A stretch of 64,000 nt of DNA from Candidatus Bathyarchaeota archaeon (GTDB lineage: Archaea; Thermoproteota; Bathyarchaeia; Bathyarchaeales; Bathycorpusculaceae): positions 128,001 to 192,000 of the forward strand of contig CAWDYC010000011.1 of the NCBI GenBank assembly GCA_963806535.1, written 5' to 3'. A model generated the notes under the pieces. The model did not search any database, was not told the origin of the DNA, and saw nothing but the letters and a program-made list of their open reading frames with translations. Each line of letters starts with the position of its first letter. Position 1 is the first letter of the stretch. The translations under genes were made by a program, and so were the position numbers. Shown here one piece after another: positions 7,920 to 58,254 of this stretch.

Positions 7920-8447
7920 TTGACTGCGATAGAATATATAGGATTTAGGATACTGCGATTGCTAAGAAAATTACCATTTAACATACTAGGCGTTGGAAAC
8001 CGTAAATTAATTTTCGCTGAGTTCTTCAAGGATTTCGAAAATGTTGAGGCGGTAAAAGGCATTTTCGGCGAAAAAACAAATGAAGTCTTAAATCATCTTA
8101 CAGTAGAACTTAGCTGGATTTTCGGCTACATGTACGTGGATGGCTCCGATGGGCACCTTGTTATAAGCAAAAACTACCTCAACAACGGCGACAAAACAGA
8201 CATTTACCTTGACTTAATCCATGAACTTTGCCATGTTAAGCAATACATGGAAGGAAAAGAGCTCTTTGATGCAAGATATGACTATGTGGAACGACCCACC
8301 GAGATTGAAGCTTACCGTTATTGTGTTCAAGAAGCAAAACGCCTGGGTCTGAGTGATGAAAGAATCAGATGCTATCTCAGGACTGAATGGATGAGCGATA
8401 ACGACTTCAAAAAACTGGTTAAATCAGTTAACATTTCAATTTCCTAA
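7920..8447 (+). CDS. Hypothetical protein with HExxH zinc-binding motif
   Basis: LIHELCHVKQ followed by PTEIEAY, zincin-like. Confidence 0.65.
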   Translation: MTAIEYIGFRILRLLRKLPFNILGVGNRKLIFAEFFKDFENVEAVKGIFGEKTNEVLNHLTVELSWIFGYMYVDGSDGHLVISKNYLNNGDKTDIYLDLIHELCHVKQYMEGKELFDARYDYVERPTEIEAYRYCVQEAKRLGLSDERIRCYLRTEWMSDNDFKKLVKSVNISIS

Positions 8448-9626
8448 TGCTTCATAATAGACTTTGAGCATTTTTTGAGCGCAAACATCCCACGTAAAGT
8501 TTTCCAAAACGAATCTGCGTCCATTGGCGCCCATTTTTTCCTGCAAACTCTTGTTCGAAATAACCTTCAACACTGCATCTGCAAACTCGGTAGTGTTGCC
8601 CAGCTTAACAAGTAAACCTGTTTCCCCATTTCGGACAGCTTCGTTTACTCCACCAATGTTAAAAGCCACAATCGGCTTAGCACAGGCTTGTGCTTCTAAC
8701 AGTACAATTCCTTGCCCCTCCTGAATTGATGGCAACGCGAAAACATCTGCGCAATTGTACACATTTGAGAGCTGGTCATCTTTTAGGTTGCCTAAAAACT
8801 TGAAATTACCTGATAGATTCGTCTTCTTAAGAGAATTATCCAATTGGTTTCTTAACGGTCCTTCTCCTACAATCAGAAATTTTGTATCGCTTTTTTCTTT
8901 AACTACTTGCCTGGCCGCTTCAACCAGAAAAGGCAGCCCTTTCCGAGGAATCAAACTACCAACAAAAAGCACACATGGCTCATCGCTTAATCCAAACCGT
9001 CGTTTAGCTGCTTCCCTATCCTCAAAGGGCCGGAATTTTGCAATGTCAACGCCATTTGGAACAATTCGCACCTTGGCCGCATCAACTTTGTAAAATTGCT
9101 TGATTTTCTCACACGAATAATTGCTGATCGTCACAATCAAAGTTGCATTTTGAGCTGTTTCAGACTCCAGCTTGCCAAGCCTACTCATGAAATAATTAGC
9201 AATCTTGCCTCTGAAAGACTGATAACCATTCTTCTTTGCCTGTTCATACTCGTCTGAGAGGACGCCATGAATCGTATGAATGAACGGCTTTTTGATGCCC
9301 TCTTTGTCTAACTTTTTGAGGAGTCCGTAACCGCTCACTGCATGAGCTTCAAAAACATCAGCATCAATGTTTGTGGCTTTTTTGGCGATGCTTCTGTTAA
9401 AGAACCAGTTGTCTAAAGGAAAAATTCTATCCGTTGAATAGAATGGAATAAAATTTACGCCGTTGAGGGTGGAAGGTTCGGTGAAGCCCGCTTTTGTGCC
9501 ACTGTAGACTGTAATGTCTGCTTGGTCTTGAAGTCGTTTGGTAGTTTCGATTATTCGCCTTTCTACCCCTCCAACATAGAGGTGAGGGGGTTGAGTATTG
9601 AAGACGGCTAACCGAAACTTTCCCAT
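8436..9626 (-). CDS. Glycosyltransferase family 4
   Basis: GGVE, HTIHG, VPNGVD, RKG, EGQGIVLLEA motifs. Confidence 0.92.
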   Translation of the reverse strand: MGKFRLAVFNTQPPHLYVGGVERRIIETTKRLQDQADITVYSGTKAGFTEPSTLNGVNFIPFYSTDRIFPLDNWFFNRSIAKKATNIDADVFEAHAVSGYGLLKKLDKEGIKKPFIHTIHGVLSDEYEQAKKNGYQSFRGKIANYFMSRLGKLESETAQNATLIVTISNYSCEKIKQFYKVDAAKVRIVPNGVDIAKFRPFEDREAAKRRFGLSDEPCVLFVGSLIPRKGLPFLVEAARQVVKEKSDTKFLIVGEGPLRNQLDNSLKKTNLSGNFKFLGNLKDDQLSNVYNCADVFALPSIQEGQGIVLLEAQACAKPIVAFNIGGVNEAVRNGETGLLVKLGNTTEFADAVLKVISNKSLQEKMGANGRRFVLENFTWDVCAQKMLKVYYEALGN

Positions 9627-34534: not shown

Positions 34535-35751
34535 ATGTTCTTGATTATTCTCTTTGTCAGTAGCCTTCTTTGCACAAACCCACCGAACATTAAGGCTCAA
34601 GCTACGCCAAACATAGTGAACACTCCGTTGACTTTTCATAATTACTCAAGTGATTCTTAATGATCCAAATGGTTCCTTCTGTGTTTACAATGGAGCAGAC
34701 GGCGCAACCATATCAGCCAACCCAACGCAAACCAATTTGATCTCGGAAATTACGGGGCAACAAGTTGTCTACGGTATGTCTTTTTCCTACTGGTCAGCTG
34801 TTATTATTTGGGCTGTTAAGTTGCCAATTGATTTGCATGTTAGATGGTTCCGTAAACATTAGAGCCTTCATCAGCAGCAACTTTAAGATCAGCGGACTTT
34901 TCAGCGGCGGCGGATACGGAATGGGTCTAGTAGACATTGACCAGAACAACAATGAAGTGCAACAATTCATTACTCAAGCTCCTTACACCCAGGGTGGCAA
35001 CCCATTTACAGCTTCGCCGACTCAATACAGCGTCAGCACTAACGTTGACTACACGTTCAAGGCGGGGCATTCGATCGGTTTCGCAGTCGGCTTAGGAGCA
35101 ACAACGCAAGGCTTCACTGCCACAGTTTATTTTGATTCAAATTCGTACAATTCAGGCGCCACGTTACCCGTTGAAGAGACAACACAGTGCCAAAGCTTCA
35201 ACGCGAACGGACAAAATATCGGGGTTGTCAGCAACTCAGCGATCTCAGGTTGTCAATTCAATTCCGCGGCAAACACCCTTCAGTTCCAAGCACAACTAAT
35301 CAGTTATACTACCGGATACTGCAACGTCAGCATCCCAAAAACGCTCTTGCAATCACCTTTTACAGTCTCCTCAGCCCAACAAACAATCCCATCAACATTA
35401 ACTGAAAACGCAACCCACTACCAAATCTATTTTACTCATACAAGAAACAGTAACCCAATTCAAATAACTGGAGCAGCAGTATCCTCTTCGCCTTCGTCAT
35501 CAACTGCTCCCACTGGCGCAATTTCGTCTTCTACACTTCCTCCCTCATCTAACTCTCCGTCGTCATCTACATCTCCAACACAAACATCCCCAAAGGCAAC
35601 GTCTTCCCCAGCAACAACAACTACACCGCCAACAGTCCCGGAAACGCAACTTCAAGATATCCTTGCAATATTCGTGTTATCAGCCATTTTCTTAATGCTT
35701 GCAGTGGTGTTTTGGAGAAGACGTTTAGCAAAAGGTAGCCTTTCGGATTGA
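34535..35751 (+). CDS. Secreted surface protein with Ser/Thr linker and PEF-CTERM-like anchor (frameshifted)
   Basis: Signal peptide, S/T/P-rich linker, VPET followed by TM and RRR tail. ORFs 34650 and 34765 are pieces. Confidence 0.7.
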
Positions 35752-35864: not shown

Positions 35865-36110
35865 AAAATTCGTCAAAAAAAGTCATGAAGACTTATTGTG
35901 CATTTTTCAAACAGTTCTAAGCAGCAAACAGAGTTCAGGTTCTACGATAATTAGATGGGCGGTAAAGAACAGAATCAACACAGGTCCTAAGAGGGTCACA
36001 ACTTTTGTTCTTTGGTTTGATTGTAGTTTTTAGGATACAGAAAGCAAAAATATACGAGCTGTTACACTCTACACTGTAACTCAGACTTGGTATGTTTAAA
36101 AAATTGTTGT

Positions 36111-36197
36111 GCGGGATTGCCCTAGCCTGGTAGGGGGCAGGCCTGCTAAGTCTGTGGTCGAAAGGCCGCGTGGGTTCAAATCCCACATCCCGCGCCA
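36111..36197 (+). tRNA. tRNA-Ser(GCT), encoded CCA
   Basis: Acceptor GCGGGAT/ATCCCGC, D-loop AGCCTGGTA, anticodon stem CAGGC/GTCTG with loop CT-GCT-AA, long variable arm, T arm GTGGG-TTCAAAT-CCCAC, discriminator G. TTTAAAAA box upstream. Confidence 0.93.
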
Positions 36198-36421
36198 TTT
36201 CCAAATTCAGCTGACTATTACCGTTAATTTTAGAAAATGAGCCTAAATTTTTGCCCGAAATAATGCTGTACCCCCTACGAGCTACGGTTTGAAGCCACGC
36301 TAACCCGTTCACAGACTTTTGGGGCTGAGCCCGGTTCAGGAATTGAACAACCGCAATTTAGTCTTAAATATAAGAACGAGCAACATGGAAACTATCAGCA
36401 ACCTGGCCCTGTGATCCAGAA

Positions 36422-37422
36422 ATGACCAACAACGAAAACTTGACGGCAAAAGCTGGAAATCCCAATTCAGCCAACGAGCCGATAGGCCGAAAGAGCATTG
36501 TGACAGTGAATCATCTTCGCAAGCAATATGGCACAACAGTCGCAGTCGACGACGTCTCGTTCTCCATTACCGAAGGCGAGGTTTTTGGCATCATAGGACC
36601 TAACGGAGCTGGTAAGACAACCACGGTTGAATGTATTTCAGGGCTTCGTGTTCCAGACTCGGGTTCCGCAACTGTTTATGACCTTAATCCCAGAGACGAC
36701 CGTGAGGAACTGCGTAAATGCGTTGGAGTCCAACTCCAAGAAAGCTCATTACCTCCACGTATCAAGGTCGGGGAGGCTCTTGAACTCTTTGCATCTTTCT
36801 ATCCAGATCCTGTTAATCCAAAGGATTTACTTGAGTCGCTTGGAATTGCTCAAAAACGTAATGCCAAATTCAAACAACTGTCCGGAGGTCAAAAACAGCG
36901 ACTTTCAATCGCGCTAGCACTTATTGGAAATCCAAAGATTGCCATTTTAGATGAACTTACCACTGGGCTTGACCCGGAAGCAAGACGTGAGACTTGGGAA
37001 CTTATAGAGCGCATTAGGGATCGAGGCGTGACAGTGATTCTTGTAACGCATTACATGGATGAAGCCGAAAGACTGTGTGACCGAGTCGCTTTGATTAATC
37101 ATGGGAAAGTAATTGCACTTGACACCCCGCAGCTCTTGCCGCAAACGAAGGTGGCGGCGTGCGGATGCAGTTTGTGCCTTCAGGACCTGTGGATGACAAG
37201 GTTCTGACTGCCTTGCCAGGTGTAACTTCGGTTGAACACAGGGGAAATCGGATCATTGTTGCCGGCTCCGGCGACTTGACTACCCGCGTGCTTTATGCGT
37301 TACTCAAGATGGGAGTGAATGCGTCAGATGTTCAGGTGAAAAGCGGCAATCTGGAGGACGCGTTCGTCAAACTCACTCAAACCGACGATAAAACCATAAA
37401 AGACGAGGTGGGGAAGCAATGA
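36422..37422 (+). CDS. ABC-2 (DrrA-like) exporter ATP-binding protein (frameshift near 37130)
   Basis: GPNGAGKT, LSGGQ, LDELTTGLD; C-terminal NLEDAFV in ORF 37159. Confidence 0.9.
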
Positions 37423-38195
37423 GTACACAAGATTCTGAAGTCACAGTTCAAAGATCCCGCAAGGCTTTCTGGGAACTTGTCAAGGTTGAGGGAAAACTCG
37501 CTTTGAGAGAGCCAGTTGGCGTAATATTCGGCATAGGGCTTCCTGTTTTCTTGCTGATTATATTTGGTAGCATTCCTGCATTCAGAAATACTGTTCCGGG
37601 CACGACGTTATCCGCTTTCGAAGTTTACATCCCGATTCTTATGGTAACTGTGCTGATATTTATCGGACTATTTGGCTTACCCATTCCAATCGTTCGTGAC
37701 CGTGAGATTGGTTGGCTAAGGCGAATCTCCACCACACCCGTGTCACCGACCAAGCTATTGGCTGCGCAGGTGACAATCAATCTTATTCTTGCGGGGATAG
37801 CATTCACAATACTTACGGTTGGAAGTGTCTTTTTCTTCGGAGTGAAGGGGTCGTTTGAGATTCCTGGATTCGTTCTTTCGATCGTGCTGGCAACGATTGC
37901 ACTGTTTTCTTTGGGAGTGCTTATTGCTGCGGTCGCGCCGTCCCAGGGGGTTGGTACAGGTATAGCGCAGGGGCTTCTATATCCGCTGTTATTCTTCGCA
38001 GGAATTTACGTTCCCATGCAGTTCCTTCCAGGCTACCTGCAAACAATAAGCAATTTCACTCCAGTCGGAGCTGCAGTTCAGGCTCTAGGAAGCTCAATGC
38101 AGGGGACATTTCCTTCTCCCATATCATTGCTCGTGATGGCCGCTTACTCAGTTTTCTTCGGCTTCATCGCGGTTCGCTACTTCAAGTGGGAGTAA
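37419..38195 (+). CDS. ABC-2 exporter permease
   Basis: Six TM segments, REIGWLRR..TTP, ends FKWE. Confidence 0.9.
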   Translation: MSTQDSEVTVQRSRKAFWELVKVEGKLALREPVGVIFGIGLPVFLLIIFGSIPAFRNTVPGTTLSAFEVYIPILMVTVLIFIGLFGLPIPIVRDREIGWLRRISTTPVSPTKLLAAQVTINLILAGIAFTILTVGSVFFFGVKGSFEIPGFVLSIVLATIALFSLGVLIAAVAPSQGVGTGIAQGLLYPLLFFAGIYVPMQFLPGYLQTISNFTPVGAAVQALGSSMQGTFPSPISLLVMAAYSVFFGFIAVRYFKWE

Positions 38196-38270
38196 CGCGA
38201 TGTCCCTCAGGCAGGAGTCGCAACCCGCAGAAAGATTCAAGCTTAAACCGAAAAGCAACTAACTTTTTCG

Positions 38271-38312
38271 TGTGGAATTTAAACGTGGGTGTAAATCTAA
38301 CATCCCGCGCTA
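38271..38312 (+). repeat. att-like site: arm motif plus degenerate tRNA 3' end
   Basis: TGTGGAATTTAAAC-GTGGGTGTAAATCTAACATCCCGCGCTA versus tRNA GTGGGTTCAAATCCCACATCCCGCGCCA. Confidence 0.85.
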
Positions 38313-38322
38313 CAAAATATTC

Positions 38323-39189
38323 TCAATTTAATCGTTGCTTATGCACTGACATGTACCTTTTGATAAAATAGGTTACAAAGCCTTCTTCTGGTCTTTGCAG
38401 GGCTTTATAATAGGATTTTCTGTTCCTATATTCTATTATAAGCATGGGATAACTGTTCTTCCATAAGATATAATTCATCAGTAGCCTACCAATCCTGCCA
38501 TTTCCATCTCCGAAAGGATGAATCTTCTCAAAAATGTAGTGTGCTCTAGCAGCAACCTCGACCGAGTTTAGTTTTGACTCGTTTATGAACAAGTTGAGTT
38601 GTCTTATGAGGTATTCTACTTTTTTCCAATCTGGCGCAACGTAAGGTCCTACCCTGACTGAATAATTCCTAAATTGCCCTGCAATGTCAGGTTTTGTTTC
38701 TCTGAATATATTTGCGTGCCATTTCAAGAGAAGATGCTCTGACAAATTCTCGTCAGTCTTAAGCATTTGCAAAAAAACTGCTGCATGAGATTCAGTTTCC
38801 CGAATGTCTCGGATTGACTTACTAGGTGCTATTTTATCCTCTAGTATTTGCCTTGCTTCTTCAAGAGTTATAGTTGAGCCTTCGATGGCGTTCGTGTTAT
38901 AGGTAAAAGCTATCGCTATTTCCTGCAACTCTTTTTCTTTAGCTGACTGGGGAACTTTTGTCCATTCTGTTTGAAAATTGTTTTTGATTTTTTCAAGTTT
39001 TGCATTTAACTCTTTATGAGGTTCATGCATGAGTTTGGCTTTGATTTCTTCAATGTTTTCAGGGATTTTTTTGCCAAGATAGAGTTCTTTTGTGACGACC
39101 TTTCCGTCTTTTCTAAAAGAATGCTGCAGATAGAAATACTCGGATTTTCCTTTTCTGCGTTTGATTGTTCGCATAAGTATTTTTACCAT
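38323..39189 (-). CDS. Fic family protein
   Basis: HPFGDGNGRIGR catalytic motif; TNAIEG inhibitory-type motif. Confidence 0.93.
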   Translation of the reverse strand: MVKILMRTIKRRKGKSEYFYLQHSFRKDGKVVTKELYLGKKIPENIEEIKAKLMHEPHKELNAKLEKIKNNFQTEWTKVPQSAKEKELQEIAIAFTYNTNAIEGSTITLEEARQILEDKIAPSKSIRDIRETESHAAVFLQMLKTDENLSEHLLLKWHANIFRETKPDIAGQFRNYSVRVGPYVAPDWKKVEYLIRQLNLFINESKLNSVEVAARAHYIFEKIHPFGDGNGRIGRLLMNYILWKNSYPMLIIEYRNRKSYYKALQRPEEGFVTYFIKRYMSVHKQRLN

Positions 39190-39257
39190 TACAAACAATA
39201 TAAATATTTCATTTTTACTTGTATTGTAATGGTAATTACGTGGCAATTTGCCATCAA

Positions 39258-39340
39258 GTGCTATTCCAAGCCTGGTAGTCGGCAGCATGCTAAGTCTGTG
39301 GTCAAAAAGCCGCATGGGTTCAAATCTCACACCCCACGCT
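39258..39340 (+). pseudogene. Degenerate near-full-length copy of tRNA-Ser(GCT)
   Basis: AGCCTGGTAG..GGCAG-CATGCTAAGTCTGTGGTCAAAAAGCCGCATGGGTTCAAATCTCACACCCCACGC aligns with 36111-36197; acceptor and anticodon stems are disrupted. Confidence 0.88.
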
Positions 39341-39566
39341 TTGCTCTTTTTGGGAAATCAGGCTTGGTCATTAGCTATTTTAGCAAAATAAGCCAGAAAA
39401 ACATCGATTCATAATTCAGCTCGCGCAATAATTAAGATGATGCCGCCGTAACCTCCAAACATTCCAAACCGCGCGCGCTGTATAGGGATTATCTCTATAT
39501 TTTGTTTATTCTTAAAAAAAGAAAAAGTATCGTTGCTAGTTAAGATGAGGGCTTAGTTGTAAAGTC

Positions 39567-39848
39567 TTATCCGAATTTCGCTAGCACTTGCCTTCCGAAG
39601 TCGGTTATTTCGACGGTGTTGAAATCGTAGGGGCCATATCTTTTTGTCGGCTCAGGTATGTCGATGAGCTTGGATTTTGATAGGTGCCGCACTGCGTCGT
39701 TTAGGGCTTCAGGCATCAAACCTGTTTTTTTGTGTAAGAGGTCTACCGTCACCAAGAGACCTTTCTCAAATTGAGAAAGGGCTACAAGAACTCTTTTGGC
39801 TGACGGGTCAATCATGTCGAAATCTTCTTTTTCAAAATCTTCATCCAT
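39567..39848 (-). CDS. Small winged-helix-like hypothetical protein
   Basis: LHKKTGLMPEALNDAVRHL..SKLI...VEITDFGR pattern. Confidence 0.6.
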   Translation of the reverse strand: MDEDFEKEDFDMIDPSAKRVLVALSQFEKGLLVTVDLLHKKTGLMPEALNDAVRHLSKSKLIDIPEPTKRYGPYDFNTVEITDFGRQVLAKFG

Positions 39849-40007
39849 TCCAAAACACCACTCGTAACTAGGACAGTCTCGCATAAAAACAATTTGAAAA
39901 AACCAAATGGAAAATAGCCCACAAAAAATGGGCTTTGTTGAGCGAAAAATGTAAGTATTTATTCAAGCCATCCATACTTAGCTCCTCGAAGAGGGTGTTT
40001 TCTCTTG

Positions 40008-40155
40008 CGTGAAATTTAAACGTGAATGTAAATCCAACACCCCGCGCCATCTCCAAATTCAGCCTACTTCTTAACCTATTTTCAATTAACAAGATCAAAT
40101 TATCGTACGAAATTATGCTTTACCGCCTAAGGTATAGTGTTTAAATTCCACATGA
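40008..40155 (+). repeat. Complete attP-like junction: arm motif, tRNA-3' core, ~100-bp arm ending in the inverted motif
   Basis: CGTGAAATTTAAAC-GTGAATGTAAATCCAACACCCCGCGCCA-TCTCCAAATTCAGC...GTTTAAATTCCACATGA; the downstream part aligns with 36198-36300. Confidence 0.85.
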
Positions 40156-40307
40156 ACTAATTGGGATACAGGATTAGAAATGGAATGTGCGTTCAGTATT
40201 TTAAGTGAAATGGGATTTGTAGCTGTAATTGTGTAACCACATACCTTGAAATATCGAGCCATCGGTAACAATCAATTACTGTTTAGTAGCGATAAAACGA
40301 TGATAAA

Positions 40308-40905
40308 ATGAGAAAATTAGCTGTACTGACTTTCGTAACCCTCGACGGTATCATGCAGGCTCCAGGAGGACCAAAAGAGGATTACCGGAGATTTCAAATA
40401 CGGTGGATGGTCGGTTGGTTACTGGGACGAATTTTTGGGAAGGGTTATGGAGAAACAAATGGCAAACCCATTTGATCTCTTGCTTGGTCGCAAAGCCTAT
40501 GAGCTATTCGCGGCTTACTGGCCAAATGCAAAAGAACCAGGAGCCTATAGATTAAATGCAGCCAAAAAATATGTTATCTCCACAACCCTTAGCAAACTCT
40601 CTTGGAATAATTCTACTCTAATCACAGGCGACGCTGTGGACGAAATTGAGAAACTCAAGGACCAGGACGGCCCTGAGATACAGGTTCATGGAAGTTCCAA
40701 CCTTATCCAAACACTCCTAAAAAACGATCTAATTGACGAATTCCGTCTAAAGATATTTCCAATTACGATTGGAGCAGGAAAACGCCTTTTTGGAGATGGC
40801 ACTATACCATCCTCATTCCGACTCCTCGAAAGCCAAACTTCTACTACTGGCGTAATAGTGGTCACATTCACAAGAGACGGAAGCATAAAAACGGGTTCCT
40901 TTTAG
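40308..40905 (+). CDS. Dihydrofolate reductase / RibD C-terminal family protein (frameshift near 40385)
   Basis: MRKLAVLTFVTLDGIMQAPGGP, LLGRKAY, HGS..L...LIDE, GAGKRLF. Confidence 0.88.
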
Positions 40906-41045
40906 CCTCCATGCAATGAGACAATTCTAATAGATCAAAGAAATGACGTTAAAAACGCCTAAATATTTTAATTTTCAACCAAGGGATGCGGCGCGAAAAG
41001 TTTTTAGGAAAAGCTCGGCAAATATTCTTTTGTTGTTTTTGGTTT

Positions 41046-41426
41046 ATGAAAAAGGATTTTGAGTCGATTGATGAGTACATCTGTTCTTTTCCTAAGAACG
41101 TTCAAACTGTTTTAGAACAAATAAGGCAAGCAATCAAGGTCGCTGCACCCAAAGCAGAAGAAGCAATTAGTTACAATATGCCAATATTCAAGCTGAATGG
41201 CAATTTGGTCTGGTTTGGAGCATTCAAGAATCATATAGGTTTCTATCCGCGGAAGTCGGCTATCGAGGAATTCAAAGAAAAACTGTCAGGTTATGAAGTA
41301 AGCAAAGTCCAGGGTACCGTCAAATTTCCATTGGACAAGCCAATGCCATTAGATTTGATAAAGGAAATGGTAAAGTTCAGAGTAAAGGAAAACCTGAAAG
41401 AAAAGAGCAGTTTCAGATATTCATAA
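41046..41426 (+). CDS. DUF1801/YdhG family protein
   Basis: IDEYI..FP, AP.AEEAISYNMP, HIGFYP. Confidence 0.85.
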   Translation: MKKDFESIDEYICSFPKNVQTVLEQIRQAIKVAAPKAEEAISYNMPIFKLNGNLVWFGAFKNHIGFYPRKSAIEEFKEKLSGYEVSKVQGTVKFPLDKPMPLDLIKEMVKFRVKENLKEKSSFRYS

Positions 41427-41548
41427 TTTCAAATTAGGAGTACCCGAACGTAGTTCGGGAGCCTTTGCCGAATGCGTGCGCTCTTGGAATCATGGAGCCT
41501 GATCGAATCCAAGTGTACATGATGACGAACAGCCGCAGTAGATTTTCC

Positions 41549-41977
41549 TCAGCCACCTGAGGACGTGTTAAGGGCCACGGCGGCGCGAATGAGGGTCTTG
41601 AAAGCGCCCTCGTCAATCTTGTCGCCTTCATGGATGTCGATGGCGCGCCTGACGGTCCCGGGCTGGTTGAAAAGGTGAGATGGGTCCTTTAGCGAAGCGC
41701 CCTTGAAGAAAGTGAGCTTAACGTGATCTTTGTATGTCTCGTCTGTGCAAATGCCGCCGTTGTGGGACCAGACGGGCGTCCCAGGATTGGTTGGCTTTAC
41801 CCACTTCCACTCTTCAACAATCTCCGGATCAGCTTCTTTGATGAGCCGGCGCACTTCGGCTAACGTTTCTCCACGCCAGTCGCCTAGCTCCTTGATTCTT
41901 GCATCTATCATTCGAGATGCAGATTCGAATCCTTGGGAACCACTTTTTCCCTTTGAATCTTGCTTCTTGGTCATCAT
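41549..41977 (-). CDS. DUF1801 family protein
   Basis: LGDWRGETL..VR.LI.EADP.IVEEWKW, KLTFFKGASL.DP; visibly GC-richer than its flanks. Confidence 0.85.
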   Translation of the reverse strand: MMTKKQDSKGKSGSQGFESASRMIDARIKELGDWRGETLAEVRRLIKEADPEIVEEWKWVKPTNPGTPVWSHNGGICTDETYKDHVKLTFFKGASLKDPSHLFNQPGTVRRAIDIHEGDKIDEGAFKTLIRAAVALNTSSGG

Positions 41978-41987
41978 ATCACAGCTT

Positions 41988-42359
41988 CTATGATTGTAGA
42001 ATGTTCCAGACGTTGCCATCAGGATCGTTGACGCTGAAGAATCTGCCTCCGGGCGGATATGGCATGATCTCGCTGTTTGGCTTGATGCCCTTTGCTTTAA
42101 TTGCCTTGTATGCTGCCTCAACATCCGGTGTTGAAAGATTGAAAGTTCTTTTTGTATCAAAATTTTTTTCTTCGGATATAAAATCAAGTGCAACATATGT
42201 GCCGCCACCAGGAGGAACAACAAAGACTCCGCGGTTTCCTTTTCCCCACATGGTGTCTTGAGTTGCTTCAAAACCTAATACATCAGTATAGAACGCTTTA
42301 GCTTTATCCATATCGCGTATAAGCAAATGGGTCAGAATTATTTTATCTACAATTTTCAT
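41988..42359 (-). CDS. VOC/glyoxalase family protein
   Basis: DMDKAKAFYTDVLGF...DPDGN. Confidence 0.9.
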   Translation of the reverse strand: MKIVDKIILTHLLIRDMDKAKAFYTDVLGFEATQDTMWGKGNRGVFVVPPGGGTYVALDFISEEKNFDTKRTFNLSTPDVEAAYKAIKAKGIKPNSEIMPYPPGGRFFSVNDPDGNVWNILQS

Positions 42360-42907
42360 AAAAATCGCCTTGTTATAAAATCTAGCATAGCCTGGCATAA
42401 ATTTTTTTCGCCCTAATAGTCTCCGTGCTTTTGGGCAATTACACCAAATATACTCGCAATTTTCTTCAGTCCGAAACCTTTCAGTTATGCTGTGGGCTAT
42501 CCGCATGAACCAATGATTGACTCGAAGCGATAACAGGTTTTGAACCCATTTGAGACTGAGTAAAAACTAATTTCAACTCCAGAAAATTGCTAGTTTTGTA
42601 CAAATAATGTTGGCCTAAAAAACGATAGAATACATATTTAAAGCAATTTTCTGAGCTCGATTTGAGTTTTTACAGAGTCTGATTTCGATCTGGGGACTCA
42701 ACGGCTCCAAATCATGGTATAGTTCAAGGATTATTGTAGTGTTCCTAGGTCGCATTCTTAAAACAAAATACTATTTTACTTTTGAACGACCAATGTGTAT
42801 TACAGATTTTATCGCAACACTTATGTCTATAAATTATGGATGAACACTAAACTTCAATAATTTTCTCGTTTAGAAGAACTTATAGTATCCACAATCAAAC
42901 TCGTATC

Positions 42908-43010
42908 TCATGTGGAATTTAAACGTGGGTGTAAACCTAACATCTCACGTAAAATTCTCATTTTGCCAATTCAGTCTCAATTAGTGTTTATTTCAGCAAA
43001 TGATGCTCAG
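42908..43010 (+). repeat. att-like site: arm motif, degenerate tRNA 3' end and partial downstream arm
   Basis: TCATGTGGAATTTAAAC-GTGGGTGTAAACCTAACATCTCACG, then CCAATTCAG...TATTTCAGCAAATGA resembling 36201-36242. Confidence 0.82.
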
Positions 43011-43089
43011 GAAAACGCTCAAAGCCTTTGACCTCTATGAGCGCGCTTGTTCAAAACACAGAGATTAGTGAAATAACTATCAATAAATG

Positions 43090-45360
43090 TCAAGATTGAA
43101 CTAGGTAGTTGACATCGCCATTTTTTCTCGTCTTTGGAATTGTTATCACGAATTTAACACCTTTTCCAGATTCACCAATTTCCTCAATTTCCCATCCGTA
43201 GACTTCAATCATTTTCTTGGATAAGAACAAGCCAAATCCTGTGCTGCCTTCGGTGCTGAAGCCTTCTTTGAAAAGCTGTGTTTTATTCTCAGCCGATATT
43301 CCGACACCGTCATCTTCATAGAACAATTTCAAGTGGGACTCATCTTCTTCAAAGTGCACTTTTATCTTTGTTGCAGTCTTTCCGTATTTGGCAGTGTTGT
43401 CAATGAAATTATAAAACATTTGTCGCAGGAAAGAATCTGATACAACATTAAGACTATGGCAACCGTTAATAATGGTGGGAAGCGAGCATGAAAAGAGATT
43501 TTTGGCTTCATCAAATACACTCCCCACGTTAACAAAAACTAGTTTTTCAACACCTAACTGCTCATATACCCTGGCAGAATCTAAAATTCTCACGATCTGA
43601 TTAACGGATAAACTAATCTTGTCAAGATCATTAGCTATGTCCGTTTGGTCTTTGTGTTTCTTCTTCATCAAATACGAGTATCCATTTATCGCGCTTAGTT
43701 TATTGCGAACATCATGCCTCGTTAACTCTCCAACAAACTTGAGTTTTTCATTCATCATTTCCAAGTGCTTGTGATTTTGCTGTAAGCGTTCTTCAATCTT
43801 TTTTAAAGCAGATATATCAACAAAGTTTTCAACAAGCAAAGTTCTTCCATTGTGTTTTGTTTTCACAACGCTTTTGATTACTGGGTGTCTTTCACCATTC
43901 GCAGTAATAATCACTCTTTCTGCTTTATCTATAGTCTGCGCCAAATCCGTGATTGGGCACTTTCCAATTTCTGCTGGGCAAATGAATTTGTGACAAACTT
44001 TGCCTACAACTTCCTCTTTAGTTGCATCGATTAAACCTAATGCAGCTGGGTTTGTGTCAATGATTTCGTGAGTTTCGCTATCCACTACAATAATTCCTGA
44101 AAGTACAGAATTCAGCAGTGTTTCGAAGTATATCTTTATGTTCTCAAGATCTTTTCTGGCTTCTTTTCGTTCAGTTATGTCGATTACTGATCCTTCCAAA
44201 ATTTGCTGTTCTGGACAAACCTTAATCGACCCAATGCAAGTTCTAATCTCGCCCTGCTTGTTTAACAACTTGCATTCAAAACCACTCAACCGACCATTGC
44301 TTTGAAGCAAGCCTAGCATTTCTTGTCTCTGAAGAGGGTCTGCCCAATGAAACACCGAAGGGTTACCCTGCATCTCTTCCCGAGTATGACCAAAAATCTT
44401 GAGAAACTGCTCATTGCAGTCAAGAATCTCCGACCCATCTATCTTTGAAACAAACATTCCAGCTTCGGCATTGTCAAATATGCTCCGATATTTTGACTCA
44501 CTTTCAATCAGTTTCATTTCAATGCTTTTGCGTTGTGTAATATCAAGGAAAACGCCTTGTACGACTTTCTGCCCGTTATACTCGACGAGGCTACTACAAA
44601 CTTCTATCCAAGTCACTGAGCCATTCTTTCTTACTCCCTTAAATTCATAAGCTGATTCCTGTTTTACCCCTGCTAATCGCTGACTTAACCGGTGAAGGAA
44701 AGCCTCTCTATCATCAGGATGGATCAAATTTGCAATTTCAGCTGGTGAAAAAGAGAGCAGTTCTTGACTTGAAAAGCCAGTCATTCTTTCCATTGCATTG
44801 TTGGCAAAAACAATATGCGGTGGAGGACCCTGAACAATAATTACTCCTTGAGACATGTCTTCTATCAGTCTGCGGTACTTTTGTTCGGAATCAAAAAGTA
44901 ACTTCTTCGCACGTTTGTGGTCTAGTGTTTTGTGAAGAGCATCTGACAACTCGCCGTAAACTGTTTCCGGGTCGCCGTTCTTGTTGATGTAAGCGTCTGA
45001 ACCAAGATTTAGAGCTTTTATCGCCACCTCTTCTCTGCCTTTTCCAGTGAATAAGATAAATGGAATTTCATTCTTCGCTTCTCTCAGTTCTTTTAAGAAT
45101 TCTAACCCGCTCTTTTGGGGCATCTCATAATCAGAAATAATCACATCATAATTGCAAGATTTCAGTTTCTTGAAGGCGTCTTGAACACAGCTGGAATGGT
45201 CAATTTCGAAATTGCCCATATCAATTAAAATCTTCTTTGTAATCTCCTGAATAGAGACGTCATCATCAACATGTAAAATATGAATAAGATCAGACTTACC
45301 TGAAGAAACTAAATCTGTTAAGGTAACCGTAATTTGCTGTGCTTGATTTTTCGTTTGCAT
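43090..45360 (-). CDS. Hybrid sensor histidine kinase (REC-PAS-PAS-PAS-HisKA-HATPase)
   Basis: HVDDD/SDYEMP receiver, three PAS repeats, RHDVRN, EDDGVG, GFGL. Confidence 0.93.
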   Translation of the reverse strand: MQTKNQAQQITVTLTDLVSSGKSDLIHILHVDDDVSIQEITKKILIDMGNFEIDHSSCVQDAFKKLKSCNYDVIISDYEMPQKSGLEFLKELREAKNEIPFILFTGKGREEVAIKALNLGSDAYINKNGDPETVYGELSDALHKTLDHKRAKKLLFDSEQKYRRLIEDMSQGVIIVQGPPPHIVFANNAMERMTGFSSQELLSFSPAEIANLIHPDDREAFLHRLSQRLAGVKQESAYEFKGVRKNGSVTWIEVCSSLVEYNGQKVVQGVFLDITQRKSIEMKLIESESKYRSIFDNAEAGMFVSKIDGSEILDCNEQFLKIFGHTREEMQGNPSVFHWADPLQRQEMLGLLQSNGRLSGFECKLLNKQGEIRTCIGSIKVCPEQQILEGSVIDITERKEARKDLENIKIYFETLLNSVLSGIIVVDSETHEIIDTNPAALGLIDATKEEVVGKVCHKFICPAEIGKCPITDLAQTIDKAERVIITANGERHPVIKSVVKTKHNGRTLLVENFVDISALKKIEERLQQNHKHLEMMNEKLKFVGELTRHDVRNKLSAINGYSYLMKKKHKDQTDIANDLDKISLSVNQIVRILDSARVYEQLGVEKLVFVNVGSVFDEAKNLFSCSLPTIINGCHSLNVVSDSFLRQMFYNFIDNTAKYGKTATKIKVHFEEDESHLKLFYEDDGVGISAENKTQLFKEGFSTEGSTGFGLFLSKKMIEVYGWEIEEIGESGKGVKFVITIPKTRKNGDVNYLVQS

Positions 45361-45964
45361 TGATTTGTTCTCAGATTCACATCTCTCTCTAATGAATTCG
45401 TTATAAAGGCGTTATGAATCCAAAATATTGAGCGATAGATTCTTTGTCAAAATGTATGATACGGTTATATTTGAAGTGCCAGGTCAAAAAACTTCTCTCT
45501 TTCATCTATTCCTTGAAATGATATCGATTTGAAAAAACAATTGCCCTTTTTTGTTCCGTAACCTGGTGCTTCAAGTTCTCTTGTTTTATCTCTGCTTCCA
45601 TTCTTTTTTTCCTTTGTTCTTCGTTTGGTTTGTTTTTTTTGTTTCGCTTTTCAGTTTGTTTTTGGCTTTAGCTTTCATTTTGATAATCCTCCTTCAATAT
45701 CAAATTGTATTGCATCCTTATTCGGTTTGCCTTCCTTATACTCAGTTTATTCACGGCATAAGTCCATACTCTTAAGAAATTTGGTCTTTCAAGCCAAAAC
45801 GGGTAATAAACCATGGCATTTACGCACTTAAATACATATACTTATAAGTGTCTATGCACATATATGTTTATATAAATAAGTGAACTGAAAGCGAAAAAAT
45901 GATGCAACAGCACACAAGCATTCGTAACTCACTTATTTTCAAAAACAAAAACAAGTGAATAAAA

Positions 45965-46105
45965 TTGGGCCGCATAAACGTTGACATCTCAGACGAATTA
46001 GAAAAACAGTTAAGATTGAAAACTGTGGAGCAATTTGGCGGCAAAAAAGGCGACTTATCGAAAGCTGTCCAAGAAGCAGTAAAAACATGGATCAATACAA
46101 AATAG
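45965..46105 (+). CDS. Ribbon-helix-helix (CopG-like) protein, 46 aa
   Basis: Hand-translated from TTG as MGRINVDISDELEKQLRLKTVEQFGGKKGDLSKAVQEAVKTWINTK; not in ORF track. Confidence 0.8.
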   Translation: MGRINVDISDELEKQLRLKTVEQFGGKKGDLSKAVQEAVKTWINTK

Positions 46106-46341
46106 TAAAGTCGCCTCCTCAAAATACTGATAACTACCTTGTATGAAGCCTAAGTAAAGGCAGGGCAAGCCAGTTAGCCTGGAACATCCTTGTATGAGGG
46201 TTAAGGGCAATCTAGCTGGAAAAATCCCTTTTGCAAAATAGACAGAAGTAAAGTTGCAGCTTTAACTTTATTACTTGCCCGCTCAGAAAAAAAATTCGAG
46301 ATTGTCTCGCAAATTAATAATAAGTAAATGGAGTCAAAAAA

Positions 46342-47313
46342 ATGAGTATAACCCAAATAATAACTGAAAAGGTACCAAAAATTGATCAGCACTTAGCTGA
46401 TAAATGCCCTGAATGTACAGGCAAAAATTTAGTTCATGATTATGATTCAGGTGAAACAATTTGTGGTGACTGTGGTCTTGTTTTGTATGAGCAGATGATG
46501 GATAAAGGACCCGAATGGCGCGCTTTCACTCACGAAGAAAAAGCCTCAAGAAGCCGCGTCGGAATGCCCACATCATATTCAATTTCTGACAAGGGATTAT
46601 CAACAACCATTAGCCAAGTTGATAGAGACGCATTCGGAAGAAAACTGCCGATCTCCACTAGATTACAAATGTGGCGCCTCAGAAAATGGCAAATACGCAG
46701 CCGAGTACACTCATCCACCGACCGAAACCTTGCCCAAGCGATGGCTGAAATTGAACGTTTATCAAGCAAAGTCTCCATCTCTCCACCAATAAAAGAGAAA
46801 GCCGCCGTTGCCTACAGAAAAGCACTAGACAAAGGTTTAGTCCGAGGAAGATCAATCAACTCAATCGCCGCAGCAGCTCTTTATGTTGCTTGCCGCAAAA
46901 GCGGATCACCTAGAACACTTAACGAAATTGCCGAGGCAAGTCTTGTTGATAAAAAGGATGTTGCCAGATGCTATAGACTGTTGCTGCAAGAACTCGATTT
47001 TCACATGCCAATTTCTGACCCACTAACTTATGTTTCAAAAATTGCCGAAAAAACTGGAATATCAGGCAAAACACAGGGCACTGCCATAGGTATACTCAGA
47101 GAAGCTAGACAAAAGCGGGTCTCTTCGGGAAAAGACCCCATGGGCTTAGCAGCCGCCGCACTCTACATTGCATGCTTAAAAAACGCCGAAAAAGCAACAC
47201 AAAAAGACATCGCAGAAGCAGCCGGAGTCACAGAAGTCACAGTCAGAAACAGATACAAGGACCTACAGAGGCGGCTGAACCTCGAAGTACCTGATCGAAA
47301 AGAAGCTTTTTAG
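46342..47313 (+). CDS. tfb: Transcription initiation factor IIB
   Basis: CPEC...CGDCG zinc ribbon, GPEWRAF B-reader, two cyclin repeats, GVTEVTVRNRY. Confidence 0.96.
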   Translation: MSITQIITEKVPKIDQHLADKCPECTGKNLVHDYDSGETICGDCGLVLYEQMMDKGPEWRAFTHEEKASRSRVGMPTSYSISDKGLSTTISQVDRDAFGRKLPISTRLQMWRLRKWQIRSRVHSSTDRNLAQAMAEIERLSSKVSISPPIKEKAAVAYRKALDKGLVRGRSINSIAAAALYVACRKSGSPRTLNEIAEASLVDKKDVARCYRLLLQELDFHMPISDPLTYVSKIAEKTGISGKTQGTAIGILREARQKRVSSGKDPMGLAAAALYIACLKNAEKATQKDIAEAAGVTEVTVRNRYKDLQRRLNLEVPDRKEAF

Positions 47314-47366
47314 TTTTCCTTGCTTAGTATTTTCTTTTTTTATTTTAGAGATGAGATATTTAACTC

Positions 47367-48017
47367 ATGCCCAATTATTCCAAACAACCATTCTTGGCGG
47401 CAACTGACGAAGAATATACCATGCTAATCGAGGTCAGTGAAGAATTTGAGAAACAAAAAATCGACAAAACAGCTCGCGAAAAATCTGGAAAGCCAACGGA
47501 AATAGTCCTACGCAATCACCTCCTAAAGAAAAGCCTTAACCTTTCAATGATCCCAGAAGTCACAATTCAAGGATCTAAGATCAAAAATGATCTGCTTCTC
47601 TTAAGGAGCGGCGTGGACCCAAACCAAAAAAACTTTCCGTCTAATAACGTGAAGATGGTAATAGAGATTAAAAACAACGCAGTCGCCGGCAAAACAATGG
47701 AAAACGGAAAACGAGAAGACCAAAACAAGGTCCTACGCGCCAAATTCAATGAACTCGAAGGAACTACCAATGTTAGGAATTTTGCCCTTATCGTTCTTTC
47801 AGAAAGTCTACTCCCGCCAAAAACTCCTCACAAATGGCGATTCAAAGAAGAAGTGATAGACAAAGAAAACTGCAAAGTCTTTACCCTAGTTGCTCGTCAG
47901 CTCTACCCTCCTGGCGGACTCTATATTAAGTCCAACATAGTAGAAATGCTTCAAAATAATCAAATGAAAAAAACCGGAGAATTTCAACAGCTGATAAATT
48001 ACCTTAAATACTTGTAA
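47367..48017 (+). CDS. Hypothetical protein, PD-(D/E)xK nuclease-like
   Basis: SGKPTE...NDLLLL...VIEIK arrangement. Confidence 0.55.
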   Translation: MPNYSKQPFLAATDEEYTMLIEVSEEFEKQKIDKTAREKSGKPTEIVLRNHLLKKSLNLSMIPEVTIQGSKIKNDLLLLRSGVDPNQKNFPSNNVKMVIEIKNNAVAGKTMENGKREDQNKVLRAKFNELEGTTNVRNFALIVLSESLLPPKTPHKWRFKEEVIDKENCKVFTLVARQLYPPGGLYIKSNIVEMLQNNQMKKTGEFQQLINYLKYL

Positions 48018-48192
48018 CCCTAAAAGGAACGTTTGTGGTCGCTTGGTTCTTTTTCGTTTGGAACTTAAGCGTGTGTGTACTCCTAGTATCCGGTGTCATA
48101 TCTAAATTCGGCTTATTTTTCAGTTATTTTAGTAATAATACTGATATTGTTGCAAAAATTTGTTAATTAGCCTCATCAAACTTTTTTTAATT

Positions 48193-56963: not shown

Positions 56964-58254
56964 ATGGCGGCAGGAGACATAGCGTGGGTAATAACTGCAA
57001 CAGCATTAGTCATGCTCATGACACCAGCACTAGGATTCTTCTACGGAGGCCTAGTGCGAAAGAAAAACCTAGTATCAACAATCGTTCAATGCTTCATAAT
57101 ATTCGCAGTCATAAGCATCATCTGGGCGCTTTGGGGCTATGCCCTTGTGTTTGGCAACAGCATCAACGGGTTAATCGGCTTTAAAACAAGCCTGATAGGA
57201 TTAAACGGCTTAGACATACATGCCGTTAACACGGCAATTGCGCCACAGGTTCCCGAACTACTTTACTTTGCATTCCAACTAAAATTCGCAGCAATCACGC
57301 CAGCTCTCATTATAGGTGCATGTGCAGAAAGAATCAGATTCAAATCCCTTCTTATCTTCATGATTCTTTGGTCAACACTCATCTACATGCCAATCGCACA
57401 TTGGGTATGGAACCCAAACGGATGGCTTCACAACTATCGGCGCTATCGACTTTGCTGGAGGGATAGTTGTACACATTTCAGCAGGCATTTCAGCATTAGC
57501 TGCAGCATTAGTGGTGGGCAGACGAAAAGGATGCGCAGTTCCATGGCAAAACCACATGAAATCATTAGATAAAAAAGATCACTCAGCAGAATTCAAACCA
57601 ACCAACATCCCTTATGTACTCTTAGGTGCAGCATTACTCTGGTTCGGATGGTTCGGCTTCAACGCCGGCAGCGCAGTAGCCGCAAACGACTTAGCAGTCT
57701 CAGCACTTGTGACTACAAACTTGGCAGCAGCAGCAGCAGCTGTAAGCTGGATGCTTGCAGACTGGGCAATCAAGGGAAAACCATCGGCAACGGGTATTGC
57801 GGTTGGGGCAGTGGTTGGATTAGTGGCGATTACGCCTGCAGCAGGATATGTCAGTGCATCATCTGCTTTAATTATTGGTTTAGCGGCAGGAGTTATTTCA
57901 AACTTGGTAGCTAACTGGAGGTCAGGTAGATCACGAATTGATGATTCATTGGATGTTTTTGCATGCCATGGTGTTGGCGGAATGTGGGGGTCAATCGCAA
58001 CAGGCCTCTTCGCTTCAGCAGCAATCAGTGCATCGGCGGGCGTTCCTGGCTTTAACGGTGCCCTTTTTGGAAACCCAGGCCAACTCGTTGCTCAGTTAAT
58101 TGCAGTTGGGGTAGTGGTACCATTTGCATTCTTCGGTTCCTATTTACTGCTTAGACTCGTGAATATATTCTCACCTTTGAGGGTGAGCGAACAAGCAGAA
58201 GATGCAGGTTTAGACCTTAGCGAACACGGCGAAGAAGCATACCAACTTGACTAA
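56964..58254 (+). CDS. amt: Ammonium transporter (frameshift near 57435)
   Basis: LMTPALGFFYGG, FQLKFA, DFAGGIVVH, WFGWFGFN, DDSLDVFACHG. Confidence 0.94.

Follow-up and report, generated by a model that had tools for sequence, protein, structure and literature searches.

What does it mean when an exact 17-bp inverted repeat brackets a small block of genes behind a tRNA gene of an archaeal genome? This question is raised by a locus within a 64,000-nt stretch of a Bathyarchaeia genome (positions 128,001 to 192,000 of contig CAWDYC010000011.1, assembly GCA_963806535.1; hereafter the window, with all coordinates counted from its first letter). The genome, designated G000, is a metagenome-assembled genome of a soil archaeon with 2,948,905 bp in 12 contigs, and genes for TFIIB, TiaS, NrdD and PFOR, found by Pfam scans of the open reading frames (ORFs) of the window, point to an anaerobic archaeon. 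An earlier interpretation made without any database search, here called the sequence-only reading, had taken the two repeat copies together with a conserved stretch of about 100 bp as arm-type binding sites of a recombinase or accessory factor, placed at fixed distances around a crossover core. According to our analysis it is probable, though well short of certain, that the repeat represents two opposed copies of one end-box in the attachment-site (att) arms of genus-specific integrative elements, which target the 3' end of tRNA-Ser(GCT) and became stacked by successive insertions. In the following, G-numbers denote genomes (101 of the genus were sampled) and L-numbers denote extracted loci, some of which come from metagenome contigs.

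The left copy of the repeat (40139-40155, GTTTAAATTCCACATGA) and the right copy (42908-42924, TCATGTGGAATTTAAAC) are complementary at 17 of 17 positions, confirming the exact inverted repeat described around the gene block between them (block D). In the whole genome the 17-mer occurs at these two places only, and its 13-mer core GTGGAATTTAAAC is present in exactly three copies, at window positions 38272, 40139 (minus strand) and 42912. The motif is thus not common genome-wide, all of these copies being located in the locus; even with up to one mismatch allowed, the 13-mer has six genome sites, four of them within this locus. Also, the left box starts at +90 from the CCA (40047-40049) of the core at 40022, as had been noted, and a variant box, GTTTGAAGCCACGC, starts at 36287, which is +90 from the tRNA end at 36197. 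In the form found in the repeated units described below, the box reads TCGYGTGGAATTTAAAC, and the consensus over its copies is TTCGYGTGGAATTTAAAC; both copies of the 17-bp repeat carry a CAT variant that is seen elsewhere, too. Compared with the reverse complement of the tRNA T-arm, the box matches at 11 of 13 positions. This resemblance gives it a core-like appearance, unlike a distinct arm-type sequence.

The positions of the two copies become understandable from the repeats of the tRNA 3' end that follow the tRNA gene. The intact tRNA-Ser(GCT) gene (36111..36197, plus strand) is the only tRNA gene of the window (ARAGORN; Rfam tRNA, 54.9 bits; tRNA is also the sole Rfam match over the locus) and anchors the array as attL, consisting of chromosomal tRNA body and core. 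Downstream of it, units of about 48 nt occur in direct orientation, each composed of a T-tract, the box, a degenerate T-arm and the acceptor 3' strand; the degenerate T-arm reads GTGGGTGTAAATCTAAC compared with GTGGGTTCAAATCCCAC in the tRNA itself, and box and degenerate T-arm together form a dyad with 10 of 13 positions pairing, as counted from the sequence. An nhmmer profile built from 44 units of relatives matches them with the E-values given below. Unit 1 (38265..38313, plus strand; E 2.5e-18) comprises the T-tract, the box at 38272-38284, the degenerate T-arm at 38285-38301 and the acceptor 3' strand at 38302-38310. Unit 2 (40001..40049, plus strand; E 6.6e-12) carries the box variant GTGAAATTTAAAC at 40009-40021, followed by the degenerate T-arm at 40022-40038 and by acceptor and CCA at 40039-40049. 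In unit 3 (42904..42950, plus strand; E 1.7e-13), the 17-mer including the box at 42908-42924 is the right repeat copy, followed by the degenerate T-arm at 42925-42941 and a decayed acceptor at 42942-42950. A pseudo-tRNA at 39262..39339 (plus strand), a degenerate, nearly full copy of tRNA-Ser with 87% identity over 55 nt, marks the junction of blocks B and C; it is called by neither ARAGORN nor Rfam. Units 1 to 3 and the pseudo-tRNA are direct repeats of the tRNA 3' end with a diverged T-arm, unit 1 being identical in ACATCCCGCG(C). Farther downstream lies a decayed unit 4 (48050..48098, plus strand), 37 of whose 49 positions agree with the unit consensus; taken alone, its nhmmer E-value of 0.13 is weak. 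A T1-like arm extends behind it from 48099 to about 48200.

Each junction is followed by an arm of about 100-125 bp, which belongs to one of two families, T1 or T2, and many of these arms end in an inverted box. T1 arms begin with TTTCCAAATTCAGC and occur in two subtypes: T1b ends in GTTTAAATTCCACGC and has its inverted box at +92, counted from GCGC, in six of the six T1b arms listed, while T1a ends, in the same alignment column, in the conserved variant GTTTGAAGCCACGCCAAC, which is found in 8 of 16 aligned T1 arms. T2 arms begin with CTCCTTTTGCCAAATAG and carry the box-like sequence GTTTAAaTTgCACAT at +111 to +115. Outside the box, T1 and T2 are only about half alike; the box stands at matching positions in both. 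Within T1, conservation is highest in the box and in the first 16 nt of the arm. In a third arm type, the 3' end of a Fic gene abuts the core.

In the window, all three of these T1 and T2 forms are represented. The T1a arm lies directly past the CCA of the tRNA (36198..36300, plus strand) and ends in the variant box GTTTGAAGCCACGC at 36287-36300. The T1b arm behind unit 2 (40050..40155, plus strand; arm alignment) ends in the inverted box at 40139-40155, so that the left copy of the repeat is the far end of this arm. T2 arms follow the pseudo-tRNA (39340..39460, plus strand; a subtype without a good box, assigned by alignment with T2 arms of relatives) and unit 3 (42951..43070, plus strand; arm alignment). 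The gapless alignment of the two T1 arms reported earlier was reproduced with 63 identities in 100 positions (36198-36297 versus 40050-40149), the next best of 5,895,434 genome positions reaching 50 of 100. Two details of the sequence-only reading need revision. The box version at 36287 had been called a weaker one; its spacing of 90 bp past the tRNA CCA stands, and the sequence is the conserved T1a variant. The flanks after 39340 and 42950 had been regarded as partial copies of the same arm, and they belong instead to the second, distantly related family T2, which recurs in other genomes.

Taken together, the elements would insert at the 3' end of tRNA-Ser(GCT), and successive insertions would stack blocks behind it. 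A junction would then consist of a P arm (T-tract, box and degenerate T-arm), the acceptor 3' strand and a P' arm of about 100-125 bp of the T1 or T2 family, often with the inverted box as its last part. In such an arrangement the right repeat copy would be the P-arm box of the block ending at 42950 and the left copy the distal P'-arm end of the same block, which is why the copies bracket the cargo. On this basis, at least five integrase-less gene blocks (A-E) appear to have been stacked behind tRNA-Ser(GCT).

Is this geometry a property of one locus or of a family of sites? With up to three mismatches, a 30-mer of the unit was found in 35 of the 101 genomes of the genus, compared with none for the reversed control. 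In a sample covering the order, 4 of 201 genomes had it, all of the same genus (3 of 17, plus G000), and it was absent from 183 genomes representing 78 further genera of the order. An exact unit was not found in viral contigs either. Pooling the extracted loci gave 78 distinct junctions, of which 35 have a true T-arm and 43 a unit. An inverted box with up to three mismatches is present at +80 to +120 in 21 of these 78 junctions (10 of the 35 and 11 of the 43, respectively), whereas 200 shuffles of the flanks gave 0.96 on average and never more than 4; reversed-motif controls gave 7 and 9 scattered matches among the junctions. The same layout was detected in 11 of 32 loci from JGI metagenome contigs, some of which overlap on the same contig.

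These data also bear on the question of whether boxes and arms have any present function. Their likeness could stem from a few recent insertions that are now decaying after having been passed on within the genus by descent and homologous recombination. The restriction to one genus would agree with this, as would the lack of an integrase in G000, the decayed copies in the array (the pseudo-tRNA, unit 4 and the acceptor of unit 3) and the frameshifts in several array genes. Against it, no more than one mismatch is found at 33 of 49 listed unit sites, although the core genes of the species concerned share only 77-83% identity with those of G000; units with 0-1 mismatches thus occur where core genes differ by about 20%. 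Furthermore, the box occupies corresponding places in T1 and T2 arms, which elsewhere are only about half alike, and it is, with the first 16 nt, the best-kept part of T1. We therefore regard decay without function as improbable.

The acceptor part of the site behaves differently from the box. In G105 (L018, G105:C1), the unit behind tRNA-Leu(GAG) combines box and degenerate T-arm with a Leu-type acceptor, showing that the acceptor tracks the target tRNA and the box does not. G000 itself has two more decayed units with a non-Ser acceptor, at C6:108065-108113 and C4:372578-372615. As the same box and degenerate T-arm are found on acceptors of other tRNAs, the site family serves more than one tRNA target.

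This bears on the position of the crossover. Similarity between junctions begins at the T-tract and ends right past CCCGCGC(CA). A crossover at the dyad centre (CGTGGGT) was considered and rejected, since hybrid sites, either box plus perfect T-arm or tRNA body plus unit T-arm, are present in none of the loci, which excludes recent exchange in the dyad centre. Together with the switching of the acceptor with the target tRNA, the lack of hybrid sites points to a crossover within or directly behind the acceptor strand ACATCCCGCGCCA, where tRNA and units are identical and where junction similarity ends; this location is probable rather than exact.

Metagenome contigs with at least 90% likeness to the window, which thus represent other populations and come from four unrelated runs, diverge from it at 36109/36110, 36197/36198, 38264-38266 and 38310, and their loose ends cluster at the edges of unit 1 (38264-38266 and 38310). 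In one such contig, block B and the pseudo-tRNA are missing, and unit 1 runs directly into the T2 arm of block C, 13 letters being replaced. Two further joints, 38304 to 36146, which goes back, and 38086 to 40003, were each seen in a single contig with unknown letters between the two sides. The sequencing runs matching the locus contain at most 0.14 of its words each, and the lack of cover for block B and the RibD_C gene does not count as evidence.

Comparison of cargo with core genes indicates how the blocks are distributed between species. The ABC transporter block (block A) is 88% identical in G003, compared with 81% for core genes. Block C DNA is 88-93% identical in G012, G021, G011, G002, G023 and G001; with core-gene baselines for G012, G021 and G001 and none for G011, G002 and G023, the values are 89% versus 77% in G012, 93% versus 80% in G021 and 88% versus 77% in G001. 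For the VOC gene, 89% identity in G016 compares with 80-83% for core genes. The same cargo also occurs with different arms, as the ABC block comes with a T1a arm in G000 and with a T2 arm in G003, and block C sits behind a tRNA-like core, a unit or a pseudo-tRNA, depending on the genome. Cargo likeness and arm swaps fit an exchange at the junctions, and this does not imply present activity.

Which recombinase could have acted on these sites? The candidate is a tyrosine recombinase of about 296 aa, encoded next to the core in relatives and not in G000. The metagenome contig L087 encodes a 296-aa tyrosine recombinase (PF00589, 8.5e-15). Its first codons (M-A-R-D-V-G-L-E) correspond in reverse complement to GGTTCAAGTCCCACATCCCGCGCCA plus T, i.e. 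to the tRNA 3' end. Past the core, this contig has a T1b arm, in which the inverted box lies at +90, and 530 bp farther on a unit. Its closest relative is the integrase of G077, with 71% identity and 295 aa. There, a complete element of 7.2 kb is flanked by tRNA-Ser at the left end and by an identical 24-nt repeat overlapping the integrase start at the right end; in the integrated state the 295-aa ORF is whole and only the DNA upstream of it is altered. This element carries genes for an AbiV-like HEPN protein and for an HNH nuclease among its cargo; a T2 arm, an ADH/DUF6326 block and a unit follow beyond it. In G002, the order is tRNA, a broken integrase gene (56-66% identity), CorA, a decayed unit and a T1b arm with inverted box; the broken gene runs in sense direction and starts 11 nt past the CCA. 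Judged from this order, the G002 unit is the far-end site of an integrase-bearing element. In the window, 12 nt behind unit 1 (38312-38323) are identical to the leader between tRNA and integrase of G002, a sequence shared by G000 and G002 only among the 101 genomes. The integrases have 295-296 aa and one Pfam match (PF00589, residues ~100-253).

Genus-wide, no PF00589 match lies near tRNA-Ser except one about 7.5 kb past a unit in G023. The scanned ORFs of this G023 stretch include no integrase, and the match itself (G023:C12:103772-104233) straddled the locus boundary outside of the scan. Two observations concern integrases at other places. In L119 (G016:C6, integrase at 8044-8931), a 61%-identical integrase lies in sense direction directly behind a 5'-truncated tRNA-like sequence of another specificity, which suggests that the same integrase family uses several tRNA targets and both gene orientations. 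Integrases with 35-42% identity to the tRNA-Ser integrase are located at or near the ends of viral contigs of 14-44 kb from IMG/VR (L121-L127), as is expected of proviruses cut at attachment sites.

Several observations weigh against the proposed end-boxes of integrative elements. No recombinase family was found by Pfam and NCBIfam scans among the 48 ORFs of the window, and 299 ORFs from 30 loci of relatives yielded one DDE transposase, located upstream of a tRNA, and no integrase; in one batch of that scan, 37 of 51 proteins came from arrays, the other 14 being the weak PF00589 loci of G000 itself. The metagenome ORF scan covered 49 ORFs from 25 of 32 loci, seven loci having been dropped as duplicates or overlaps. 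In G000, PF00589 matches are weak, none of them is on the contig of the window and none is found at 1e-9; the best match to the tRNA-Ser integrase has an E-value of 1.2e-20, which means no close homologue. The upstream neighbour of the tRNA gene, a 328-aa ORF (34765-35751), was considered as a hidden recombinase and has no match in Pfam, NCBIfam or PDB sequences. Intact integrase copies at tRNA-Ser are rare, with G077 among the 101 genomes and L087 outside that set, and these intact copies lack the box in their own arms. Judged from its length, the integrase has no evident separate arm-binding domain. A good inverted box is present in only about one quarter of the junctions, and the T1a variant departs from it. 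Neither a circle junction nor an excised form was seen among the metagenome contigs examined, which belong to other populations.

Consequently, with an intact tRNA and direct repeats present and the integrase absent, the window contains remnants and not complete elements. The absence of the integrase from G000 implies that its blocks would be movable only in trans. A more dynamic interpretation would regard units and arms as live sites of an integron-like capture system on tRNA-Ser and also tRNA-Leu, in which small blocks with a T-arm-mimic box at both ends are excised, swapped between species and re-inserted by the rare integrase of the G077/G002 type acting in trans, with the boxes as loading sites. 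We consider this doubtful. The sequence-only reading of the repeat as arm sites is retained in so far as both copies lie within recombination-site arms around a tRNA-derived core, with a geometry conserved well above the shuffled background and a cognate integrase family in relatives; the designation arm-type does not hold for a box that resembles the T-arm.

What, then, might the box do? We infer that it is a protein-recognition element, and points for its recognition are its likeness to the T-arm, its pairing with the core in the unit and its matching positions in two arm families. The competing idea is that of a promoter: with its TATA-like TTTAAA, the box could lie across the core from the integrase gene on the excised circle and turn the gene on only after excision, or the P' copy could drive the first cargo gene. 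Indeed, TTTAAAT-like boxes precede the tRNA genes of G000 by about 30-45 nt, and the T1b arm sequence GGTATAGTGTTTAAATTCC resembles the tRNA-Ser promoter GGTATGTTTAAAAAA. As the G002 integrase starts 11 nt past the CCA, a box positioned as in the units would precede it by about 40 nt. In L087, the integrase ATG lies about 90 nt downstream of the inverted box, and in 13 of 15 cases the first ORF behind the P' box has the same orientation as the tRNA. However, the box lacks the A-rich stretch found upstream of the TATA-like boxes of tRNA genes, the conserved T1a variant loses TTTAAA, and the cargo start codon mostly lies 107-475 nt from the box. The nearest ORF preceding a unit runs toward the box in 21 of 32 cases, which argues that the unit box is not an inward promoter, and the locus is found in no RNA run. 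A promoter role thus appears rather unlikely, and recognition by the recombinase or an accessory factor is favoured over it.

Inverted boxes at both inner ends of the cargo, together with the lack of a recombinase within the blocks, could also be explained by terminal inverted repeats of a transposon-like cassette whose transposase is encoded elsewhere. Yet the right box is fused to the tRNA-derived core in every unit found, blocks are located behind tRNA genes only, and the exact copies in the genome are all in the tRNA locus. Moreover, neither a target-site duplication nor a linked transposase was found, and an integrase with the core in its own gene accounts for the sites, making a transposon very unlikely.

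Finally, the whole junction of about 150 nt (box, core, arm and inverted box) might work as a folded single strand like the attC site of integrons. Inverted ends of 13-17 nt about 130-150 nt apart in each junction and the mostly co-oriented, integrase-less arrays of small cassettes are reminiscent of this. As single-stranded DNA, however, positions 40000-40160 (161 nt) fold with -4.9 kcal/mol compared with a shuffle mean of -8.3 (z +1.5). Among 11 cassettes with both end boxes readable, differences between the ends are non-compensatory by eye, and only block D has perfect ends. There is no integron-type integrase beside the arrays; the genes upstream of the tRNA have no recombinase family, and these neighbours vary between species. 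We give an attC-like mode hardly any credence, and its hairpin is ruled out by the fold and the lack of compensatory changes. A Xer/dif-like module was rejected as well, as a dyad scan of G000 with either half-site and spacers of 2-11 bp gave only two unrelated matches.

The blocks themselves carry diverse genes. Block A (36422..38195, plus strand; Pfam) encodes an ABC ATPase, frameshifted into ORFs 36422-37207 and 37159-37422, and an ABC-2 permease (37419-38195). Block B (38323..39174, minus strand; Pfam and NCBIfam) is a Fic/DOC-domain gene, for which the listed ORF extends to 39330 and a 283-aa form fits the relatives. Block C (39567..39884, minus strand) encodes a 105-aa protein without significant family match in Pfam and NCBIfam, which we would guess to be a winged-helix regulator. 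Block D (40308..42357, mixed strands; family scans) contains a RibD_C gene (40308-40905, plus strand, frameshifted near 40385-40435), two DUF1801 genes (40986-41426, plus strand, and 41549-41977, minus strand) and a VOC/glyoxalase gene (41988-42357, minus strand); the first of these had been labelled DHFR, and the label is to be replaced by that of a frameshifted RibD_C-domain gene. A non-coding stretch (42358-42903) separates the VOC gene from unit 3. Within this stretch of about 550 bp lies a 39-nt inverted repeat with 77% complementarity and a 50-nt loop (42553-42680). Block E (43090..48017, mixed strands; Pfam), located between unit 3 and the decayed unit 4, comprises a response-regulator/PAS histidine kinase (43090-45360, minus strand), a TFIIB-family gene (46342-47313, plus strand) and a 216-aa ORF (47367-48017, plus strand). 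The segment of this TFIIB paralogue has very many DNA matches of 72-84% throughout the genus. Three genes of the window are split by frameshifts, namely those for the ABC ATPase (36422-37422), the RibD_C protein (40308-40905) and an ammonium transporter (56964-58254). An extra G behind 37125 in contigs of three of the four metagenome runs indicates that at least the frameshift of the ABC ATPase gene is a mutation or an assembly error of the record.

The Fic gene recurs in a comparable setting. A gene of about 283 aa whose 3' end abuts a unit or tRNA core is present in the window (38323-39339) and in L011, L021, L025, L030, L059, L061, L064, L066, L067 and L086. In several genomes a second tRNA-Ser-like copy lies at the 5' side of the gene, and the module is conserved. 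In L061 (G051:C1:1637408-1640114), four perfect tRNA-Ser 3' ends lie within 2.7 kb, and two of them flank a Fic gene; this is an array of true tRNA ends and not of units. Elsewhere in G000, ARAGORN called a second "tRNA-Ser(gct)" at C4:66291-66365, which measures 75 nt, lacks the long variable arm and lies about 4 kb from the weak PF00589 match C4:61549-62019; it may be a further relic of integration.

How the abundant, uncultured Bathyarchaeia acquire accessory genes is poorly understood, and this locus is a hot spot of such acquisition. Its cargo ranges from transporters, redox and detoxification enzymes and Fic proteins to regulators and a TFIIB paralogue. The site anatomy at nucleotide level, in combination with a candidate integrase in relatives, makes recombination testable in vitro for a lineage without genetics, and the 48-nt unit can serve as a simple annotation marker for island borders in these genomes.

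How does this family compare with known systems? For archaeal tRNA genes, tandem integration, loss of the integrase after integration and att sites inside integrase genes have been described (available excerpts of PMC8371274 and PMC7253208). With SSV-type and tandem archaeal elements (PMC8371274, in the excerpt available) the family shares a tyrosine recombinase, a tRNA 3' target, direct repeats of the tRNA end, several elements in tandem and integrase loss and, in the relatives G077 and L087 only, the att core within the integrase reading frame. In contrast to SSV-type elements, only the first ~8 codons overlap the core here, and integration leaves the gene unsplit. Differences to archaeal tRNA elements are the Bathyarchaeia lineage and integrase-less blocks with a conserved non-tRNA box and arms of about 100 bp, which are absent from the descriptions in these excerpts. 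In lambda, arm sites are bound by a second domain of the integrase (PMC8371274, same excerpt).

As in the lambda attP, conserved elements flank a crossover core on both sides at fixed distances, here in an attP-like junction about 150 bp long, whereas the integrase of 295-296 aa has no evident extra domain and the boxes are core-like, resembling the T-arm. Integron arrays, including archaeal ones (10.1101/2022.02.06.479319, as far as its available part goes), similarly consist of small, mostly co-oriented, recombinase-less blocks between sites with inverted ends. Unlike integrons, the sites here derive from the tRNA 3' end, show no folding or covariation and have no adjacent integron integrase, and the blocks are often multi-gene with both orientations.

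A description of a Bathyarchaeia family of this kind was not found in the literature that was searched; in its accessible part, a survey of Bathyarchaeia viruses mentions integrases and not attachment sites. Tycheposons of Prochlorococcus form islands from repeated tRNA integration in which intact elements are rare (10.1101/2020.12.28.424599, accessible part). In common with them are islands seeded by tRNA genes, in which newer elements push older ones outward, scattered partial tRNAs and remnants, integrase-bearing copies far rarer than islands, and adaptive cargo. The tycheposon host is a cyanobacterium and the present one an archaeon, the integrase belongs to another family, the blocks are small, and the unit is a diverged T-arm mimic plus a box conserved as such, not a plain partial tRNA. 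The system is thus a new family of a known kind and, as a system, an ordinary case of tandem accretion at a tRNA gene.

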